From Dehalococcoidia bacterium (GTDB lineage: Bacteria; Chloroflexota; Dehalococcoidia; Bin125), in contig CBDBPH010000001.1 of NCBI GenBank assembly GCA_965208665.1, positions 16,408 through 80,407 on the forward strand: DNA of 64,000 nucleotides, written 5' to 3'. The position numbers and the translations under genes were made by a program. Position 1 is the first letter of the stretch; each line of letters begins with the position of its first letter. Below are positions 881 through 10,565 of this stretch, one piece after another. Below the pieces are notes generated by a model. It was not told where the DNA came from, made no database searches, and was given only the letters and a program-made list of their open reading frames with translations.

Positions 881-2104
881 ATGCCACGCGTCATGTTGCT
901 GATCCCGACCGCTTCATACCGTGCCCCGGACTTTATGTCGGCTGCCGACAAGCTGGGTCTTGATGTGGTGGTCGCTTCGGACATCGACCAGCCGTTGGCC
1001 GACATGTATCCGGGGCGCTGGCTGACGCTGCCGTATCACGACATCGAGCGAGGAGCGCAGGCTGTCGCGCGCTATGCGGACCGCTTCCCGCTCGATGCAG
1101 TGGTGGCTGTCGACGATCCCGGCACGATCCTGGCGGCCCATGCCAGCTCCGAGCTCCAGCTCTCCGGAAACAGTCCGGAATCGGTCCTTGGCACGCGGGA
1201 CAAGTCCGAGCTACGGCGAGCGCTGGATGCAAACGGCGTTCGATCGCCCAGATGGCAGGTCTGTCGATTTGCCGACGCGCCGCCTACTGATTCGCTGCAG
1301 TTCCCCGTCGTCGTCAAGCCGCTTGGTCTCAACGGCTCGCGGGGAGTGATGCGCGCAAATGACGAAGCTTCGTTCCGCAATGCGGTCGCCCGCTTGCAGC
1401 GCCTGCTTGGAACCAGGTCCGCGGCCGAGGAGTGTGGAGAACTCGCCGACCGCTACCTCGTCGAGGGATTCATCCCCGGAGTCGAGGTTGCAGTCGAAGG
1501 CCTATTGACGGATGGCGAGTTGCACACGCTGGCCGTGTTCGACAAACCAGACCCGCTCGATGGACCGTTCTTCGAAGAGACCATCTATGTCACGCCGTCC
1601 CGGTTACCGGACGAGCAGATTCAGGAGGTCGTCGAGACCGCGCGGCGTTCGGCAGAGGCGCTCGGACTGCACGATGGACCGTTACACGCAGAACTCCGGC
1701 TCAACGAGGATGGCGCCTGGCCAGTTGACGTAGCGGCCCGCACGATTGGCGGGCTATGCGCCCGGACCCTGCGCTTCGGGGCTGGGATGTCGCTCGAAGA
1801 AATCGTCCTGCGACACGCGATCAATGCGCCATTGGAGACGCTCAATCGCGAGGCGCGCGCCGCCGGCGTGATGATGATGCCCATCGTCGGTCGTGGCAGA
1901 ATCAAGGCGATTCTCGGCCTGGACGAGGCCGCCGCCGTGCCGCTGGTCGAAGAGATCGAGATGGAGGCGAGGGTCGGCAACATGCTGATCCCGCTGCCCG
2001 AGGGCGCAGACTATCCCGGCTTCATATTCGCCAGGGGCGAAGACCCAGCCGAAGTAGAGTCGGCGCTGCGGCAGGCCTGGTCGAAGATCGAGTTCGTCCT
2101 GTAG
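881..2104 (+). CDS. ATP-grasp domain protein (amino-acid-ligase-like)
   Basis: RDKSELRRAL, FPVVVKPLGLNGSRGV, LVEGFIPGVEVAVEG, HAELRL...DVAARTIGG ATP-grasp motifs. Confidence 0.85.
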   Translation: MPRVMLLIPTASYRAPDFMSAADKLGLDVVVASDIDQPLADMYPGRWLTLPYHDIERGAQAVARYADRFPLDAVVAVDDPGTILAAHASSELQLSGNSPESVLGTRDKSELRRALDANGVRSPRWQVCRFADAPPTDSLQFPVVVKPLGLNGSRGVMRANDEASFRNAVARLQRLLGTRSAAEECGELADRYLVEGFIPGVEVAVEGLLTDGELHTLAVFDKPDPLDGPFFEETIYVTPSRLPDEQIQEVVETARRSAEALGLHDGPLHAELRLNEDGAWPVDVAARTIGGLCARTLRFGAGMSLEEIVLRHAINAPLETLNREARAAGVMMMPIVGRGRIKAILGLDEAAAVPLVEEIEMEARVGNMLIPLPEGADYPGFIFARGEDPAEVESALRQAWSKIEFVL

Positions 2105-2109
2105 TCGAC

Positions 2110-3486
2110 TCAGGCCTCCTCCTGGCCCTCGCGCTGCGGCGCCGGTCGTGTGACCAGCGGGCTCACCGCCCGACCGAGGACCGCCTTCGGCGGCTTGGCA
2201 AAGTACACAGGGATGATCGCGGCGAAGGTGAGAATCGCGACGAGGGTCAGAGGAGCCTCATACGAGCCGGTCACATCTTCAAGTGCTCCAATCATCAATG
2301 GGCCGAAGCCGCTGGATATCTGCGTTGCCATCGCGATCAGGCCGTAGATCGCTCCAAAGCTGACGTAGCCGAACACATCTGACGTGAGTAGCGACTGCAG
2401 CATGTACACATTGCCGATGGTGAAACCAAAGATCAGGATGGCCACGTAGGTCACCGCGATGTGATCAACCTGGATGACGACCAGAGCTGCCGCGCCCTGA
2501 ACCAGGAACATGATCACCGTGAGGATGCGCAGGTCGACGCGATCGGCGAAGTAGCGCCCAACGACCAGCCGCGCCACGATGCTGCCGAACGCGATGATCG
2601 AGAGACTGGTTGTCGCCGCAGTGAGAGAGCCGACCCGCTCCTGCACGAACGCGGTCTGGTGCAAAATGAAGCCGGTCTGGGCCAGCAGCACGATCACGAA
2701 GCTGATCATGATCGACCAGAAAGACAGCGTCCGCGTCGCGCCGCGGATGCTCCAGCGCCGAGTCTGGTTGGCAACTGATCGAGCCACGCTCGCGCGTTGA
2801 GGAGTGACCGGCTCCAACCCATCCTGCGGCAGACCCATCTGACGAGGATCCCAGACCAGGACGAAAGCCACGATCGGAAGTCCCACCAGCAAGATCAGGC
2901 CGGCCATCGCAGGGGTAGCGACACCGAGTCCGAACTGTTCGATCAGCACGCCGTTGACCGGAGACAGGACCACCCCACCCAGCGACACACCGGTGGACGA
3001 AACAGCCATCGCCCAGGCCCGTCGATGAACAAACCAGCGCGCGAGGGTCGCATTGACTGCAACGCCGGCGCTCATGCCCGAGCCGAGGGCCATGACGATG
3101 TAGGCGAGATAGAGCTGCCACAGCTCCGTGACGTGCCCGATTGCCGCGGCCGCCGCGATCAGCAGAATCAGGCCGGGCGACATCCACTTGCGTGCGCCAT
3201 GCCGATCGATCAACGGACCGACCAGCGCGGAAGTGACCCCCGAGAACACGAAGTACATACCGGTCGCGAGCGACACATCGCTGTTCGACCAGTCGTGCAG
3301 CTCCCTCAGCGGCCCCAGGTAGACCGCAATGCCGTAGTAGCCCACGCCGACCGAGACGAACAACAGCCCGGCGCAAGCGAAGACGATCGCCCAGCCGTAG
3401 TAGACGTTGGCCGGCAACAGACGCGCGGCCAGCGGCCGGTGGGGCGGCAAGTCGAAGGAGTCACGGGAACTCGTCTGACCGGACAA
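2110..3486 (-). CDS. MFS transporter (OFA/MCT-like)
   Basis: About 12 hydrophobic segments, YYGW N-terminal motif, GPLIDRHGAR motif A, ARWFVHRR. Confidence 0.88.
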   Translation of the reverse strand: MSGQTSSRDSFDLPPHRPLAARLLPANVYYGWAIVFACAGLLFVSVGVGYYGIAVYLGPLRELHDWSNSDVSLATGMYFVFSGVTSALVGPLIDRHGARKWMSPGLILLIAAAAAIGHVTELWQLYLAYIVMALGSGMSAGVAVNATLARWFVHRRAWAMAVSSTGVSLGGVVLSPVNGVLIEQFGLGVATPAMAGLILLVGLPIVAFVLVWDPRQMGLPQDGLEPVTPQRASVARSVANQTRRWSIRGATRTLSFWSIMISFVIVLLAQTGFILHQTAFVQERVGSLTAATTSLSIIAFGSIVARLVVGRYFADRVDLRILTVIMFLVQGAAALVVIQVDHIAVTYVAILIFGFTIGNVYMLQSLLTSDVFGYVSFGAIYGLIAMATQISSGFGPLMIGALEDVTGSYEAPLTLVAILTFAAIIPVYFAKPPKAVLGRAVSPLVTRPAPQREGQEEA

Positions 3487-3588
3487 AGCCGATTCAGCAT
3501 ATGACCGATGCCGCGCCGTCCTGCATCGTGTAGCTGACTAGACTGCCAGCCAGTCAGGGTTCCAGCACATGATTTGAGGGAGTTGGAC

Positions 3589-4716
3589 ATGGCCGAACGA
3601 CGCACGGGATGGGTCTACCACGAGTCCTACATGTGGCACGACACGGGTCGGACGCGGGCCTTCGATCCCGAACTGAGACGTTGGATGCAGGCCTGGGAAC
3701 ACTGGGAGAATCCCGACACGAAGCGCCGATTCAACAACCTGCTGGAGGTCTCCGAATTCTCCGAGGAGTTGGTGCCGCTTAAGCCGCGCCCAGCGAATCT
3801 CGAGCAGGTGCTCCGCTTTCACACGCCCGAGTACGTCGATCGAGTCCGCGATTTATCCGCAGGCGATGGCGGCGACGCGGGAGAGGGCGCGCCATTCTCC
3901 CACGGCGGCTACGAGATCGCATTGCTCGCCGCGGGCGGCACGATCACAGCCGTAGACGCCGTGCTCGACGGTGATGTCGACAACGCCTACGCGCTCGTGC
4001 GTCCGCCCGGACACCACGCCGAGCGCGATCGCGGCCGAGGCTTCTGCGTCTTCGGCAACGTCGCGATCGCGGGAATGCACGCCCTGGCGGAGCGCGGGAT
4101 CGACCGGGTGGCGACGCTCGACTGGGATGTCCACCACGGCAACGGCACGCAACAGGCCTTCTACGACCGCAACGACGTGCTGACCATGTCGATCCACCAG
4201 GACCAGTGGTATCCCCGAAACAGCGGCGCCATGGACGAACAAGGCGACGGTGACGGAGACGGCTACAACATCAACATCCCGTTGCCGCCGGGCAGCGGTC
4301 ATGGAGCCTATGTCGAGACGATCCAACAGGTCGTCGTGCCGGCGCTGCAGGCCTTCCAGCCTGACCTGATCCTTGTTCCGTCTGGATTCGACGGCGGTAT
4401 GTACGATCCGCTGGGTCGGATGATGGCGTACTCGGAAACCTTCCGCGAGATGACGCGATTGCTGCTGGAAGCGGCGGACGATCTCTGCGGCGGTCGACTC
4501 GTACTGAGTCACGAAGGCGGCTACAGCCCGACCTACGTCCCCTTCTGCGGCCTCGCCGTCATGGAGGAACTCAGCGGCAAGCGGTCGATCGCGGGAGACC
4601 CGTTCGAGGACAACTCGGCTACCGCCGGAGGTCAGGATCTACAGCCACACCAACAGTTGGTGCTAAACGACGCAACGTTGCTGGTCGATCGGTTGAAGCA
4701 GCTCGAGGGCGTTTAG
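3589..4716 (+). CDS. Class II histone-deacetylase-family Zn amidohydrolase
   Basis: RPPGHHA, GFC, DWDVHHGNGTQ, NIPLPPG, SGFD and EGGY motifs; ATG 3589 follows GAGGGAG. Confidence 0.92.
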   Translation: MAERRTGWVYHESYMWHDTGRTRAFDPELRRWMQAWEHWENPDTKRRFNNLLEVSEFSEELVPLKPRPANLEQVLRFHTPEYVDRVRDLSAGDGGDAGEGAPFSHGGYEIALLAAGGTITAVDAVLDGDVDNAYALVRPPGHHAERDRGRGFCVFGNVAIAGMHALAERGIDRVATLDWDVHHGNGTQQAFYDRNDVLTMSIHQDQWYPRNSGAMDEQGDGDGDGYNINIPLPPGSGHGAYVETIQQVVVPALQAFQPDLILVPSGFDGGMYDPLGRMMAYSETFREMTRLLLEAADDLCGGRLVLSHEGGYSPTYVPFCGLAVMEELSGKRSIAGDPFEDNSATAGGQDLQPHQQLVLNDATLLVDRLKQLEGV

Positions 4717-4779
4717 CCAGAACGTTCCGCCACTTCGCGTCCTCCTCTTCTCCGAGCAGGTGGGAGCGATGGAGGGTCG

Positions 4780-6159
4780 CTAGAGCTCGGTCACACCGAT
4801 TGAACTGACCGATTGATCGGTGCCGAAGGGAGCCAACTGGTCCCCTGTCGGCTCCGCTCAACAGAACCAGTCTTCGGTCAGGCCCGGCCGATGGACATGC
4901 GGCGCCGCCACATCAGGCCAGGGTTCCGCTTCGAGCCATCGGCAAGCTGCAGCCTTGATCTGCGAGAGCGATGCCTGGCGCTCCGCCAGGCCCGCGATCT
5001 CGGCCTGCAGATCGTCCATCCGAGCGTCTTCGTGCTGCCAGTTCCAGGTGAGGCCGTCGCTGTCGTACGCCACCAGCGAACCCAGCTCGCGCATCGGATG
5101 GACCAACGGAGAGTCAGAAGGAACGAGCAGACGCAGCCCCAGTTGCACCGGCGGCGTCACGTCCACAAGCTTCCGAGTCTCTACGAACCGAACGAGATCA
5201 AGGAAGTGTGCCGGCGAGGTCCAGGGAGTGAACGGGAGCCACGTGGGCCTGAGGGCGACTCCTGACCGTTCGGTGAGTTGCAGCACGAGATCGAGGTCGT
5301 CGGCGGTATGGCCCTTGTCCAGAATCTCGAGCAGGCGGTCATCCACCGACTCAAACGCCGAGGTGATGAACGTGACCCCGAGTTCGGCCATCTCGGGCAA
5401 CAGTTCCTGATGCTCGATTAGGTGCTCAACCTTGATTGTGGCGTCAAAGGTGATTCCCGGATGCTGACCCGACGTCTCGCGCAGCAGATGCATCGCCAGA
5501 TCAGGGGCATTGAGGAAGTCGGGGTCACCAAAGGTGACGTGTTCCGCTCCGGCCGCGACTTGCTGATCGATGTCGGCAAGCACGGTCTCTGCCCCGTTGA
5601 GCCGCAGTCGTCCCGCGTAGATCGGCGTTAGCGGGCAATGCGTACACCGATGCGCACAGCCGCGCGTCGCCTCGACATAGCCGGCGAGGTGAGAGTTGCC
5701 ATCAGCATCCCGATAGCGCGCGTACTGTTGGAGTGGCGGCAACACCGAACGAATAGGGACAGGACGCGATTCACGGTCGAACAACGGCACGTTTGATATG
5801 TCGTCACCGCCAGCAAGCTTGACGAGCTGCAGATCGGTGTCGCCGCTGATCGCTCGGCCCAAACCGAGATCGTGGAGTGAGTTGGCCGCGAGACCGTAGA
5901 AGACGATCTTGTCGGACATCTCCCGTAGCTGCCCGGCAATGCGAATGCCAAGTCGGGCGGCCGTGTGCATCGGCGTCGAGATGCCGATCAGGTCCGCTTC
6001 AGCAGCAGCGGCAAGCAGTCGATCAGAACTCACCGATTCCACGGCAAGGTCGAACGCGGAAACCTCGTGTCCCGCTGCGATCAACGCCGCGGCCGGCGCG
6101 GCAATGCCGAGCGGCTGGTGGCCTTGCTCGTACGTGGAGATCAGGAGGACGCGCGCCAT
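4780..6159 (-). CDS. CUAEP/CCAEP-tail B12-binding radical SAM selenoprotein; in-frame TGA at 4858-4860 read as Sec
   Basis: N-terminal cobalamin-binding-like domain (LLISTYEQGHQPLG), radical SAM motif RGCAHRCTHC, and a tail TEDWFC-TGA-AEPTGDQLAPFGTDQSVSSIGVTEL-TAG followed by a hairpin after the UGA. Confidence 0.88.
4829..4855 (-). promoter_or_regulatory. Putative bacterial SECIS hairpin
   Basis: mRNA UGA-GC-GGAGCCGAC-AGGGGACCA-GUUGGCUCC: a 9-bp stem (one G-U pair) with a G-rich apex, starting 3 nt after the UGA. Confidence 0.7.
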
Positions 6160-6187
6160 CGGACGCCTGTCCGGCTAATGATCAGGG

Positions 6188-6796
6188 TTACTTCTTCGAC
6201 GGCTGGTAGTACGGATTCTCCCCGGACTGATGATCGGTGATGTCGATCAATTCGTCGATCTCCGGGAGCTGTTCCTTGACCGCAACCTCAATGCCCTGCT
6301 TGAGCGTCACGTTGGCCATGCCACAGCCCTGGCAGCCGCCGCCCATCTCGATGTAGGCCTTACTGCCCTGGACATCGAGGAGCTGGACAAACCCGCCGTG
6401 TGCGGCAATCTGCGGATTGACCTGTTCGTCGAAGATCTTCTGGATCGCGAAGGCCAACGGATCCCGCCACACCGGATTGGGATTGTTGAACTCAAGCCCC
6501 GAGACATTCGGTCCCTTGAACTCGTAGTGGACGGACGTGCCGCGCAAGTCCTCGAGCCGCTCGCCTTCGACGTAGAGGACGAAATCCGGGTACTCGGCAG
6601 TGGCATCTCCATCCGGTTCGTATCCCTTTTCGACGATCGTCAGCACGTGCTCGAAACCGTCGGACGTGCGTCCGGTGATCTTGAGCCGCAGTCCGGCCAC
6701 TTCCTCCGGATAACCGGTCAAGACCTCAACCAGTTTCGACCGGGCAATCTCGGAAAAGGTGATCCCCAAATCGCCCGTCGGTGCGTCGGTCGTCAT
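6188..6796 (-). CDS. nfuA: Fe-S biogenesis protein NfuA (degenerate A-type domain plus Nfu domain)
   Basis: Cys-less HesB-like N-terminus ending in FNNPN; VNPQIAAHGG...MGGGCQGCGMANVTLKQGIE...DITDHQSGENPYY. Start taken at ATG 6796 (the track start is 6829). Confidence 0.88.
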   Translation of the reverse strand: MTTDAPTGDLGITFSEIARSKLVEVLTGYPEEVAGLRLKITGRTSDGFEHVLTIVEKGYEPDGDATAEYPDFVLYVEGERLEDLRGTSVHYEFKGPNVSGLEFNNPNPVWRDPLAFAIQKIFDEQVNPQIAAHGGFVQLLDVQGSKAYIEMGGGCQGCGMANVTLKQGIEVAVKEQLPEIDELIDITDHQSGENPYYQPSKK

Positions 6797-6855
6797 CGGA
6801 TTCCCCCGTCCGGTTTCGTTTCCTAGCATAGCGTTCGGCCAACGTTGGATCGTGA

Positions 6856-8601
6856 ATGGAGCACGACATGACAGTCGAACGAGTAGTCGTCGAGAAGAAC
6901 ATCGAGATCCCGATGCGGGACGGCGTCATCCTGCGCGCCGACCTGTACCGACCGGAGGATGCCGACCAGCCCGGCAATGCCGTGCCGGGCATCGTGACCC
7001 GAACGCCGTACGACAAGGAGCAATCCGGCGCCGGACTGGTTGCCGTGATGCCCAGCGCGCTCAAGCTGGCAGAGCGCGGCTATGCGGTCGTGGTCTGCGA
7101 CTGCCGCGGTCGATACGCCTCCGAAGGCGACTTCAAGCCTTTCCACCAGGAAGGCGCGGACGGCTATGACACGATCGAATGGATCGCTGCACAGCCCTGG
7201 TGCGATGGCAACACCGCGATCTACGGCCCCTCCTACGTCGGGGCGACGACCATGCTGGCCGCCCGCGAGCAGCCGCCCTCACTTCGCTGCGCCATCCCGA
7301 TTATCACCGCCGACGACTACTACGACGGCTGGACCTATCAGGGCGGCGCCTTCCAGCTTGGCTTCATCGGCCTCTGGGGCAGCGGTGTGGCCGCGACGGG
7401 ATATCTCCAACAGAATCACACGCGGCCGATGGACGCGGCCGATGAGATGACCGAGGCCGTAATGGGCAACGCGTTCCGCCTCTTGGGCAACCGACCACTG
7501 AGCACGATGCCCGGCATCTCGCAGGAGGGAGTGGCCAACTACTGGCACGAGTGGATCGAGCATGAGACGCGGGATGACTACTGGGAATCCGTCAGGCACT
7601 CAGCCGACTATTCGCGCTTCCAGGTGCCCATGCTGCATATCGGCGGTTGGTTCGACATATTCGGGATCGGCACGGTGCGCAACTTCCGCGGCATCCGCGA
7701 CGAGGGCAATCCCGATCAGAACCTGATCATGGGGCCCTGGGCGCACACCAACTATGACCGCTGGTTGGGCGAAATGGAGTTCGGCCCGACCGGCGCTGCG
7801 GCCGCAGCCAACGTAATCGCCGACATCAACGCCTTCCTCGATCGGCACCTCAAAGGCGGCGACCAGGAACTCCCTGACGTCCGCTGGTTCCTGATGGGCG
7901 CGAACGAGTGGCGCACGGATGAGTCGTGGCCTCCGACCAGCGCCGAGGAGCGATCGCTCTACCTGGCCTCCGACGGCGGCGCGACCATGCACTACGGCGA
8001 CGGCCGCCTGGTCGACGATCGCCCCGAGGACGACCACCGCTGGGACGAGTTCATGTACACCGGATACAAGCCGGTGATCACCGAAGGCGGCTCGACGTTG
8101 CAACAGGGAGTCGGTCTGCCCGGCCCGCGTGATCAGTCGCGGACCGAGAGCCGAGACGATGTGCTCTGCTACACCACCGAACCACTAACCGAAGCCCGAG
8201 ACGTCGCCGGGCCGGTCGAAGTTGACATCTGGTTCGCCAGCAGCCAGCCAGACACCGACATCACGGCCAAGCTCGTCGATGTGCATCCCGATGGCAAGCC
8301 GGTGTCGCTGGTCGACGGGATCATGCGAGCGCGATTCCGCGAGGGATTCGATCAAGAGGTCCTCATGACGCCCGGCGAGGTGGTCAAAGTGACCGTCGAC
8401 CTCGCTTCACTGGGTCACCGATTCGAGGTCGGCCACCGAATCCGGCTGGAAGTGTCGAGCAGCAACTACCCTCGATTCATGACCAACTCCAACGACGGCG
8501 GCTCGGTCAACTCGTCAACCGAGATGCAGCCGGCGATCAACTCCATTCGGCGCGGCGGAGAGTATCCGTCGGCCGTGCGTTTCTACCAACTGAAGGACTG
8601 A
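6856..8601 (+). CDS. CocE/NonD family serine hydrolase
   Basis: IPMRDGVILRADLYRP, RTPYDK, DCRGRYASEG, GPSYVG nucleophile elbow, GWFD, GPWAH. Confidence 0.92.
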   Translation: MEHDMTVERVVVEKNIEIPMRDGVILRADLYRPEDADQPGNAVPGIVTRTPYDKEQSGAGLVAVMPSALKLAERGYAVVVCDCRGRYASEGDFKPFHQEGADGYDTIEWIAAQPWCDGNTAIYGPSYVGATTMLAAREQPPSLRCAIPIITADDYYDGWTYQGGAFQLGFIGLWGSGVAATGYLQQNHTRPMDAADEMTEAVMGNAFRLLGNRPLSTMPGISQEGVANYWHEWIEHETRDDYWESVRHSADYSRFQVPMLHIGGWFDIFGIGTVRNFRGIRDEGNPDQNLIMGPWAHTNYDRWLGEMEFGPTGAAAAANVIADINAFLDRHLKGGDQELPDVRWFLMGANEWRTDESWPPTSAEERSLYLASDGGATMHYGDGRLVDDRPEDDHRWDEFMYTGYKPVITEGGSTLQQGVGLPGPRDQSRTESRDDVLCYTTEPLTEARDVAGPVEVDIWFASSQPDTDITAKLVDVHPDGKPVSLVDGIMRARFREGFDQEVLMTPGEVVKVTVDLASLGHRFEVGHRIRLEVSSSNYPRFMTNSNDGGSVNSSTEMQPAINSIRRGGEYPSAVRFYQLKD

Positions 8602-8984: not shown

Positions 8985-10565
8985 ATGAGGACTGTAGCAG
9001 CTTGGTCACTAACGAAGAAACTTGAAGATAGAGAGGAAGCACAACGGGCTTTTGCTCGACATCAGCAAGCGACGACCGATTGGCTGTTGAACAAAGGCAT
9101 TCAGGATGTAGAACTTGCAGAGCAACAGATTGCACTCACGAACGGGAAGCAGGCATCATTCTCACACAGCCGCTTGCGGGCGGAGGAAGGCCATATCTAC
9201 GCTTTCTCGTTGTTGGAACCTCACGACGACACCAACGAGTGGGAGACGCGATTTTCTCTCGCCGTAGGGGACTCAGAGTTGGCCTTGTTCTGCCAAATGC
9301 GGATTGGAAATCGACAAGCTGCCGTCGGCAACTTGCGCTATGACCCTAGATGCCCACACTTTCTGCGCGAGATCATTACCGATGGCCAATGGTACGCAGG
9401 ACCAACTGCAGTTTCATCCTCTGCCGCCAGTTATCTAGGAGGCCCCCAAGCCAATGAACTTGTCAAGTTGATCTGGAATCCCAATCGCAAGCTTCCAGTC
9501 GTCATCGTCTCAGAGTCAGACGGTTTCACATTGCATCCTGACATACTGGACCGTCTCGCCTATGACCTAAGCGGCATTGCCCATGTGGGACTCATTGATA
9601 CCGATGCTGCCTGGCGGATTACACAGCTAAGAGGTAAGGAGTGGTCCTGCTTCTGGGGGGCAGTTCGCCTCTATTGGCCGATGTCAGGTCAGGATGCCAA
9701 TCCAAGACATCATCCATTCTGGGCTCCGAGCCATGTCCTCAAGGACGGAGTAGATACCAAGCTGGCGGCTCTGCGCATCCGCAATAGCATACGAAGGAGA
9801 ATCCTGACGCAATCGACCGCCCTAACCCAACCCGGTCTGATATCTGTACTCCGTGCAGCACACTGGGGAGAGATAGCAAAGCAGGCGGAAGAAAGCCAGG
9901 AGAATCAGGCTCTCTTTGAGCTGGCGGCGTCTGCGGAAGCACAGCTGAGAGAGGAAGTCATTCAGTTGAAGGAGGATCTTGAGGCTGCGACCACAGAAAA
10001 TCTCCATTTGGAGAGGAAGAATGACGAACTAACAGCGCAGCTCGAGCAGATGAATGTAGCGATGGCTCATGCAGGTCGTCAGAGCGACGCGTCCGATACC
10101 TCCGACGCCCTTCAACCCAATGACATTCCTCAGCCCACGACAGTTGCCGAAGTGGTTGTACAGGCGCGCAGGAGTTGCGCCAATCTAGAGTTTGGTGGAG
10201 ACGTTGACGAGGGCGTGAGCGGACTGGCTCCTTCCGCTGGGCCTCCAGACGAAGTGTTGCGATATCTCCAAGAGTTGAACAACATGGCAGCGTTGATAGT
10301 CGACGATGGAGAAATCGGCGAGCATCCTCATACGTGGCTCGAGAAGCGGAATGTTGTCTCTTCAGGAGAGACAAAACGCACCATGAGCAGCCGATCGGAA
10401 CAACAGAGGAGAACTTGGGACACAGGATTCGGTGATTCGGATATCTACGAGTTCCACTTGAAGGTCAACGAAAGTACAAATCCGGCGAACTGTGTGCGCA
10501 TTTACTACAGACTAGGCGAACCTGGCCAGCGTACTAGTGTCGGGTGGGTAGGACGCCATCCCTAA
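8985..10565 (+). CDS. Hypothetical protein, low GC, with a central coiled coil and a C-terminal HLK..RIYY..GWVGRH domain
   Basis: 526-aa ORF with AAGGAG upstream; many A/T-ending codons, unlike its neighbours. Confidence 0.75.
   Translation: MRTVAAWSLTKKLEDREEAQRAFARHQQATTDWLLNKGIQDVELAEQQIALTNGKQASFSHSRLRAEEGHIYAFSLLEPHDDTNEWETRFSLAVGDSELALFCQMRIGNRQAAVGNLRYDPRCPHFLREIITDGQWYAGPTAVSSSAASYLGGPQANELVKLIWNPNRKLPVVIVSESDGFTLHPDILDRLAYDLSGIAHVGLIDTDAAWRITQLRGKEWSCFWGAVRLYWPMSGQDANPRHHPFWAPSHVLKDGVDTKLAALRIRNSIRRRILTQSTALTQPGLISVLRAAHWGEIAKQAEESQENQALFELAASAEAQLREEVIQLKEDLEAATTENLHLERKNDELTAQLEQMNVAMAHAGRQSDASDTSDALQPNDIPQPTTVAEVVVQARRSCANLEFGGDVDEGVSGLAPSAGPPDEVLRYLQELNNMAALIVDDGEIGEHPHTWLEKRNVVSSGETKRTMSSRSEQQRRTWDTGFGDSDIYEFHLKVNESTNPANCVRIYYRLGEPGQRTSVGWVGRHP

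Follow-up and report, generated by a model that had tools for sequence, protein, structure and literature searches.

The locus examined here raises a simple question: does a radical S-adenosylmethionine (SAM) gene of a Dehalococcoidia bacterium (Chloroflexota; Bin125 in the GTDB lineage) end at the first stop codon of its frame, or is that codon read as selenocysteine (Sec)? The gene, henceforth referred to as rSAM, lies on the minus strand of a 64,000-nucleotide stretch of DNA (contig CBDBPH010000001.1 of GenBank assembly GCA_965208665.1, positions 16,408 to 80,407), which we call the window and whose own numbering is used throughout. From an ATG at 6159 its open reading frame (ORF) runs through ...GLTEDWFC to a TGA at 4858–4860, giving 433 residues; beyond this TGA a further 25 sense codons (AEPTGDQLAPFGTDQSVSSIGVTEL) follow in the same frame before a TAG at 4780–4782 closes it. 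These positions had been given in an initial annotation made from the letters of the window, and rereading the sequence confirmed them.

Comparative evidence indicates that the gene at 4780–6159 (minus strand) encodes a selenoprotein of 459 residues followed by the TAG stop, and not the 433-residue product predicted by gene callers. The UGA at 4858–4860 would specify Sec434, directly after Cys433 (TGT, 4861–4863), and the 25-residue tail that follows Sec (4783–4857) begins with a conserved segment, AEPT..Q[LF][AG]P, and continues with a variable stretch. Taken jointly, the read-through as Sec, the position of the selenocysteine insertion sequence (SECIS) and the placement of the protein in its family have, in our estimate, a probability of about 0.9.

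Decoding of the in-frame TGA

Orthologues of rSAM were present in 35 of the 36 other species genomes of the genus, each with exactly one TGA; the sole genome without an orthologue is 66% complete. Throughout the 36 genus sequences (the window and the 35 orthologues) the TGA occupies the same column, the segment GLTEDWFC-U-AEPT is invariant and is followed by x-x-Q-[LF]-[AG]-P, and the frame is closed by a second, real stop. Because this identity holds in 36 of 36 orthologues that are only 70–89% identical overall as proteins, the conservation of the TGA column and its flanks is, on alignment evidence, more than chance would produce. Further along, the variable end of the tail reads ...ISLIE[LF] in many genus members, with a conserved penultimate Glu. 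The length of the tail after Sec varies among the orthologues from about 15 to over 50 residues, and in several species (L032, L033, L045, L050, L053, L058, L060) a second TGA ends the frame beyond Sec, or the frame extends further.

Outside the genus we compared 75 loci from other lineages, representing many phyla. The column is TGA in 44 of them and a Cys codon (TGC or TGT) in the other 31, and on its 3' side AEPT..Q is conserved across phyla in both the TGA and the Cys forms. The initial annotation had expected just such a pattern, Cys versions with AEP kept after the column. On a family tree of 79 sequences (built with FastTree only, tail columns left out), at least 12 changes between Sec and Cys are needed, and nine are forced by well-supported branches.

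The machinery for Sec incorporation, for which the initial annotation had proposed a genome search, was looked for in the genome to which the window belongs (2.85 Mb in 2 contigs). All four components were found above their cutoffs: selA (524 bits, cutoff 267.9), selB (328 bits, rising to 350.8 when its C-terminal piece is added, cutoff 242.25), selD (348.5 bits, cutoff 125) and one tRNA-Sec (68.2 bits against an Rfam gathering score of 47, with anticodon TCA by ARAGORN). TGA as a general sense codon was considered and rejected, the selA and selB matches and the part of rSAM upstream of its TGA containing no in-frame stop, while selD and rSAM have exactly one in-frame TGA each. The selD gene lies outside the window (G000:C1:264281-265222); since it carries one in-frame TGA, the selenophosphate synthetase of this organism is probably a selenoprotein too.

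The SECIS hairpin

A bacterial SECIS is expected within the coding sequence just after the UGA, and the initial annotation had assigned this role to a 9-bp hairpin at 4829–4855 (minus strand), with arms at 4847–4855 (GGAGCCGAC) and 4829–4837 (GUUGGCUCC) and its first base as the third nucleotide after the UGA. The hairpin does exist in the window, where all nine pairs form (eight Watson-Crick and one G-U), but it is not conserved, being fully paired in only 3 of the 36 genus orthologues and retaining at least eight of the nine pairs in 12. It overlaps, and is mutually exclusive with, another hairpin at 4827–4846 (minus strand), which appears to be the actual SECIS. In a minimum free energy (MFE) fold of 86 nt around the UGA (−34 kcal/mol, z −2.25, with 8 of 200 shuffles folding as well) it is this second structure that is preferred over its competitor. 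It pairs A4846-U4827, G4845-C4828, G4844-C4829, G4843-C4830, G4842-U4831, C4840-G4833 and C4839-G4834 around the apical loop AGUU (4838–4835), and its stem (4828–4845) starts 12 nt after the UGA.

Among the 36 genus orthologues, 29 have this hairpin completely paired in one or the other of two registers; when synonymous codons were redrawn according to the codon usage of the gene, the expectation was 0.28 of 36, a contrast that overstates independence, the genus sequences being kin. Rare codons are retained at the stem and loop (GGG in 31/36, at 10% of Gly usage; TTG in 32/36, at 11% of Leu usage), CAG is kept at its SECIS position in 36/36, and compensatory cases occur, such as a GCG...CCG and a GAC...GGU variant. 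RNAalifold applied to the genus alone returned a consensus of only 4 bp because the two registers coexist.

The signal extends well beyond the genus. With a criterion of at least five contiguous pairs closing a 4–5 nt loop AGUU or AGGU at a fixed position, the hairpin was found in 39 of the 44 TGA forms against 1 of the 31 Cys forms (Mann-Whitney p = 2.9e-12), and the TGA forms outside the genus display 22 distinct inner stems. Covariation was assessed on an ungapped alignment of 45 Sec sequences as a 7-bp helix with a 5-nt loop: 81.6% of the cells are paired against 63.3 ± 1.8 in shuffles (0/500 as high), 66 cells are changed on both sides against 25.5 ± 5.0 (0/500), and the covariation score is 0.519 against 0.199. 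Sliding the partner by 1–3 columns lowers pairing to at most 56.5%. The test is conservative, since sequences in the 4-nt-loop register were scored as unpaired. From these comparisons a predicted family-wide SECIS consensus emerges, with a stem from 12 nt after the UGA and an AGUU or AGGU loop, encoded by T-x-x-Q-[LF]-x-P. An Rfam search with the SECIS gave no relevant model at E up to 10.

Four independent lines (the machinery, the genus-wide conservation, the Cys counterparts and the SECIS) thus agree that, as far as comparative analysis can tell, the TGA stands for Sec, as had been proposed initially. SelB and Sec-tRNA(Sec), helped by the SECIS, would decode the UGA at 4858–4860 to give Cys433-Sec434, then A-E-P-T and a flexible end. 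Two points weigh against this conclusion: the genus counts are not independent, the genomes being kin, and the window's own SECIS stem has a 1x1 mismatch (A4841/C4832) that leaves it weaker than in most relatives. The reading of the TGA as a plain stop, with a 433-residue product ending in WFC and the conservation beyond it due to a terminator, a regulatory hairpin or another element that is not translated, has on its side that gene callers end the protein there, as do 110 of the 120 best database matches (at W[FY]C), but it is very improbable given that the downstream frame is kept as protein in TGA and Cys forms alike across phyla, that 31 of 75 relatives have a Cys codon in the column, that the hairpin is confined to TGA forms, that the Sec machinery is complete and that a second real stop ends the frame in all 36 genus genes.

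Family placement and gene neighbourhood

In NCBIfam the protein, scored with Cys in place of Sec, matches best the CUAEP/CCAEP-tail radical SAM (seleno)protein family, NF040546 (468.4 bits); the alignment runs end to end, from residues 4–443 to model positions 1–467 of 468. The match to this family had been recognised in the initial annotation and it holds, with one point against it: the score is below the curated cutoff of 500. The deficit is shared by the whole genus, as in a six-frame search the window gene scored 461.4 bits and all 36 genus genes between 451.6 and 482.3. Nevertheless the protein nests among members that pass: the cutoff was exceeded by nine of the ten other members scored (range 496.6 to 701.9 bits), including the nearest sisters of the window clade (L096 and L069, at 539.5 and 528.6 bits). 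The second-best family is ArsL (NF040542) at 245.3 bits, followed by a third at 49.8 bits, and ArsL is also second-best for all ten other members, at 246–340 bits. On the tree a long branch (0.75) leads to the genus of the window, which falls within a well-supported Chloroflexota clade of 15 rows with both Sec and Cys forms. Judged by its sequence, the window protein is thus a fast-evolving, divergent branch of the NF040546 family, and therefore public records name these genes plain 'radical SAM protein', listed in the genus with 433 residues.

The signature of the family, C-[U/C]-A-E-P, is present as W-F-C-U-A-E-P at residues 431–437. The positions invariant in the 79 family sequences include C168, C172, H174 and C175 of the cluster motif and, in and near the tail, E429, W431, C433, position 434, E436 and P437. 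A third Cys close to the tail, C407, was considered and discarded, as it is conserved in the genus and not across the family.

That selenoproteins of this kind exist is already known: NF040546 is a named NCBIfam selenoprotein family and its status as such is recorded by NCBI. In the part of the literature available it is listed among the few CU-motif selenoproteins, with structure and function not well known (Haft, 10.1101/2022.07.06.499078). Full-text literature searches for the motif names returned this one relevant paper, and the literature searched describes no reaction; the main text of a 2026 review of prokaryotic selenoproteomes has neither the NF040546 accession nor the motif. The statement of the initial annotation that the reaction of the family is, to its knowledge, not known agrees with this searched literature. 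Of the 120 best database matches, the nine beyond those ending at W[FY]C that are not fragments carry CCAEP, and one is a fragment. A whole selenoprotein clade is hidden in this way, because the TGA cuts short 110 of the 120 nearest database proteins, which go by the name 'radical SAM protein' only. The family-wide SECIS consensus could serve to find and repair such genes.

One such case seems to be found in a cultured organism. Thermomicrobium roseum DSM 5159 (L141) has a family member on its megaplasmid (NC_011961.1, 7935–9440) whose RefSeq entry ends at the TGA; reading through gives CUAEPLEDPSGPV..., with a 6-bp hairpin with a GUC loop after the UGA, so that the organism seems, by sequence, to carry a Sec form annotated as truncated. 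Neighbours of this gene encode a pyridoxal phosphate (PLP) aminotransferase, a major facilitator superfamily (MFS) transporter and a GNAT-ABC fusion. A search confined to the megaplasmid record NC_011961.1 did not find selA there. As to the environment, public runs holding between a fifth and half of the words sampled from window positions 3500–7000 are labelled sponge metagenome and come from two studies (X5–X8; four runs of one sample were set aside). No RNA run was listed among the public runs that share sequence with this stretch.

In the window, rSAM is part of a block with the following order: an L-amino-acid-ligase-type ATP-grasp gene (881–2104, plus strand; Pfam ATP-grasp_4, LAL_C2 and ATPgrasp_N), an MFS transporter (2110–3486, minus), located between the ligase and rSAM, a histone-deacetylase-family amidohydrolase (3574–4716, plus; Pfam Hist_deacetyl, 289 bits), convergent with rSAM, then rSAM itself, an NfuA-like iron-sulfur (Fe-S) carrier (6188–6829, minus; TIGR03341 at 100.6 bits against a cutoff of 269, Pfam NifU at 72.4 bits) and a CocE/NonD (S15 peptidase-like) hydrolase (6856–8601, plus; TIGR00976, 442.7 bits), divergent from nfuA. 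The nfuA gene lies 28 nt upstream of rSAM on the same strand and is its probable operon partner. The 16 genus loci with long flanks (L045–L060) have the genes in this order too, wherever the contig allows, which shows shared descent and not function; for the MFS transporter and the amidohydrolase, synteny was seen within the genus only. Within the block rSAM is the least conserved gene (71–89% identity, against 83–96% for the ligase, 86–94% for the amidohydrolase and 81–96% for nfuA), which fits its long branch on the family tree. Beyond the hydrolase, an ORF of 526 residues (8985–10565, plus strand) has a G+C content of 0.54–0.57 against 0.61–0.67 around it. Its family search gave only a marginal plasmid-replication match (E about 1e-3), and something similar, at about 25% identity, occurs at the site in 3 of the 16 genus loci; the picture is that of a variable insert, with the hydrolase on one side and a methyltransferase on the other.

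The partner that travels with rSAM across phyla is the ligase. It is single-copy in the genome of the window and 40–57% identical to the rSAM-adjacent ligases of other phyla, a divergence similar to that of rSAM itself. A recount by tblastn placed a ligase at 35 of the 75 rSAM loci outside the genus, about two thirds of the 35 lying within 100 nt of the rSAM gene; of the 45 loci flanked by 3 kb or more of sequence on each side, 27 have it. An earlier clustering of neighbours, which counted the locus of the window among its 76 loci, had detected the ligase in just 27; this was an undercount because long antisense ORFs in GC-rich DNA displaced the real genes. All five genomes that were re-checked have a ligase homologue, in four of them within about 2 kb of rSAM (one of these a partial match). 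Among 24 genomes of the same class outside the genus, only one (G046) has rSAM and only that one has the ligase, the two genes being about 340 nt apart. The second commonest neighbour is an Nfu-type Fe-S carrier (28 of 75 loci outside the genus), and exporters (MFS, ATG22-like, ABC-2), DUF169 and YggX-like proteins recur in subsets of loci.

Possible chemistry of the Cys-Sec tail and comparison with known systems

The predicted domain order is an N-terminal Rossmann-like domain, a SAM barrel with a CxxxCxxC [4Fe-4S] motif and the tail. The cluster motif, CAHRCTHC, is encoded at 5635–5658 (minus strand) and reads C168-x3-C172-x-H174-C175; Pfam Radical_SAM matches at 46.6 bits. An AlphaFold2 model computed on the alignment of the 79 family sequences is confident overall, with a mean predicted local distance difference test score (pLDDT) of 91.4 and a predicted template modelling score (pTM) of 0.90, and lower in the tail (pLDDT 66 for residues 431–440, below 50 for 446–459). 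The nearest solved folds by Foldseek are AprD4, OxsB, MgmA and TsrM (E 1e-16 to 1e-14, TM score 0.56–0.67), while a PDB sequence search gave only weak matches to MiaB, Elp3 and RimO. No ArsL structure was found in the sequence or structure searches of the PDB.

By sequence, ArsL is by far the next closest family and the closest characterised relative. The window protein is 29–32% identical to RCCLKC-tail proteins over about 410–420 aligned residues, the alignment ending near residue 394, and it is not itself a member of NF040542, scoring 245.3 bits against a cutoff of 450 and having a tail other than RCCLKC. According to the portions of the reports that were available, ArsL has a canonical CxxxCxxC motif, yet it cleaves SAM to methylthioadenosine and a 3-amino-3-carboxypropyl radical, which it joins to arsenite held by the C-terminal RCCLKC tail; removal of the tail abolishes the product and leaves SAM cleavage intact (10.1101/2024.02.01.577332; 10.64898/2026.04.29.721666). 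All three cysteines of that tail bind arsenic, again going by the part of the report available (10.64898/2026.04.29.721666).

Considering this sisterhood together with the ligase in the gene context, we tentatively favour, at odds that fall short of even, an ArsL-like model for the enzyme. As in ArsL, the products of SAM cleavage by the rSAM protein would be methylthioadenosine and a 3-amino-3-carboxypropyl radical. The Cys-Sec tail would hold a soft element, such as arsenic or selenium, to which the radical is joined, generating an unusual amino acid. The co-inherited L-amino-acid ligase could then convert this amino acid into a dipeptide and a transporter could export it, while the NfuA-like neighbour may supply or repair the Fe-S cluster. 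The initial annotation had offered redox, metal(loid)-binding and methyl-carrying roles for a Cys-Sec arm; metal(loid) binding is the one best supported, by analogy with the RCCLKC tail of ArsL.

Several observations weigh against the ArsL-like model. The tail has two conserved chalcogen ligands where ArsL has three, all of which bind arsenic. When the 117 ORFs flanking rSAM were sorted into families, no arsenic gene was found in the 25 commonest, and neither these families nor the window contain linked ars genes, an ArsM-like methyltransferase, arsR, an aquaporin or arsN. At 40 of the 75 loci there is no ligase, although many of these are on short contigs, and sequence alone does not tell which C-S bond of SAM is cut.

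A parallel for the ligase is found in ArsL-family clusters themselves, five of six such records having an ATP-grasp gene (plasmids of Priestia, Bacillus cereus, Alicyclobacillus, Pantoea and Klebsiella); the arsQ-arsL-arsM cluster of Pseudomonas has none. These ATP-grasps are just 21–25% identical to the window ligase (E 1e-8 to 3e-18), a further point against the model, and therefore the parallel is, on these identities, one between gene classes and not between orthologues. MFS transporters were rejected as an argument for orthology, as those of the window, of T. roseum and of the ArsL clusters have no similarity to each other at E < 1e-3. Arsenic context genes are present in the ArsL-family plasmid clusters, unlike the rSAM flanks here. 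All five RCCLKC-tail clusters (L142, L143, L145, L146, L147) have, besides the ATP-grasp, a CobW-type GTPase and an annotated GNAT/ArsN1 acetyltransferase; four have an aquaporin or MIP channel, Alicyclobacillus being the exception, and an MFS transporter and arsM are annotated only in Alicyclobacillus, Pantoea and Klebsiella. The ATP-grasp gene in these clusters hints at peptide derivatives of arsinothricin, and a literature search on ATP-grasp in ArsL-family clusters found no paper discussing it.

The competing explanation that survives best, which we consider only slightly less probable than the ArsL-like model, accepts a real selenoprotein and gives it canonical chemistry. A 5'-deoxyadenosyl radical would act on an organic substrate, for instance an amino acid or the dipeptide of the ligase, and the Cys-Sec pair would be a hydrogen-atom donor or a redox-active selenylsulfide arm instead of a metalloid site. 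Precedents for both roles are known: in certain radical SAM epimerases the hydrogen is donated by a Cys thiol, and the C-terminal Cys-Sec pair of thioredoxin reductase is redox-active. The canonical CxxxCxxC motif and radical SAM barrel, the organic substrates on which AprD4, OxsB, MgmA and TsrM all act, the lack of arsenic or other metal-resistance genes among the common neighbours and the mere two conserved ligands of the tail are consistent with such chemistry. On the other side stands ArsL, by far the closest characterised family (245 against 49.8 bits for the window protein, 246–340 for the ten other members), whose motif is equally canonical and which, going by the accessible parts of the same reports, nevertheless cuts the other SAM bond and uses its C-terminal Cys tail as a substrate-binding site and not as a redox pair.

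A cobalamin-dependent radical SAM methylase, with a Cys-Sec tail that carries the methyl group or holds a metalloid to be methylated, is clearly improbable. The fold resembles both cobalamin-binding class B members and AprD4; OxsB, TsrM, MgmA, TokK and CysS are among the structural matches and the N-terminal domain resembles B12-binding domains. The best structural match, however, is AprD4, which is not known to carry cobalamin. The B12-type domain of the initial annotation corresponds to a match to Pfam B12-binding (PF02310) at 32.0 bits, just below the gathering score of 32.1. Moreover, ArsL is active in reaction mixtures for which the main text, as far as it was available, lists no added cobalamin (10.1101/2024.02.01.577332). 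A methyl-carrying arm is the least supported of the three roles because PF02310 is sub-threshold and ArsL was reconstituted without listed cobalamin.

What this analysis adds is a divergent and systematically truncated clade, the true SECIS with its family-wide consensus, the ArsL sisterhood as a lead and a conserved ligase partner. Pairs of a CUAEP-tail rSAM and a ligase are found in Chloroflexota, Acidobacteriota, Actinomycetota, Gemmatimonadota, Planctomycetota and others. More speculatively still than the mechanism itself, these pairs might represent a widespread, unstudied two-enzyme pathway that makes an amino acid with a carbon-metalloid or carbon-chalcogen bond and packs it in a dipeptide for export. 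If so, the products would amount to a second arsinothricin-like family of 'Trojan horse' compounds, and the ATP-grasps of ArsL clusters would point to arsinothricin-containing peptides as well. The ArsL sisterhood and the ligase link turn the function of the family into concrete assays (the SAM bond cut, the element bound by the tail, the dipeptide), and the answer could reveal new organo-metalloid natural products.

Set beside known systems, the window protein agrees with NF040546 members in domain order, in the cluster motif and in having W-F-C-[U/C]-A-E-P, and differs in its tail, where 25 residues follow Sec, against about 10–20 in most relatives. Its SECIS is comparable to the E. coli fdhF type, a hairpin within the coding sequence that starts about 11–12 nt after the UGA and whose small apical loop exposes a G and a U. 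The two differ in the sequence of the stem, which is dictated here by the T-x-x-Q-[LF]-x-P codons. With the class B radical SAM enzymes AprD4, OxsB, MgmA and TsrM it shares the overall fold of Rossmann domain and barrel at 13–18% sequence identity, and none of the four has a Cys-Sec tail. Thioredoxin reductase and MerA also place adjacent Cys-Sec or Cys-Cys residues on a flexible C-terminal segment. The likeness suggests in rSAM a swinging arm that would deliver electrons, or the ion of a soft metal, to a site buried in the protein, although the folds and cofactors are unrelated and here 25 residues follow the pair, with A-E-P conserved. Finally, ArsL has the same N-terminal domain and barrel and likewise a short Cys-rich C-terminal tail, which in its family ends in KRCCLKC with three ligands, whereas the tail described here is C-U-A-E-P, with two ligands, one of them Sec.

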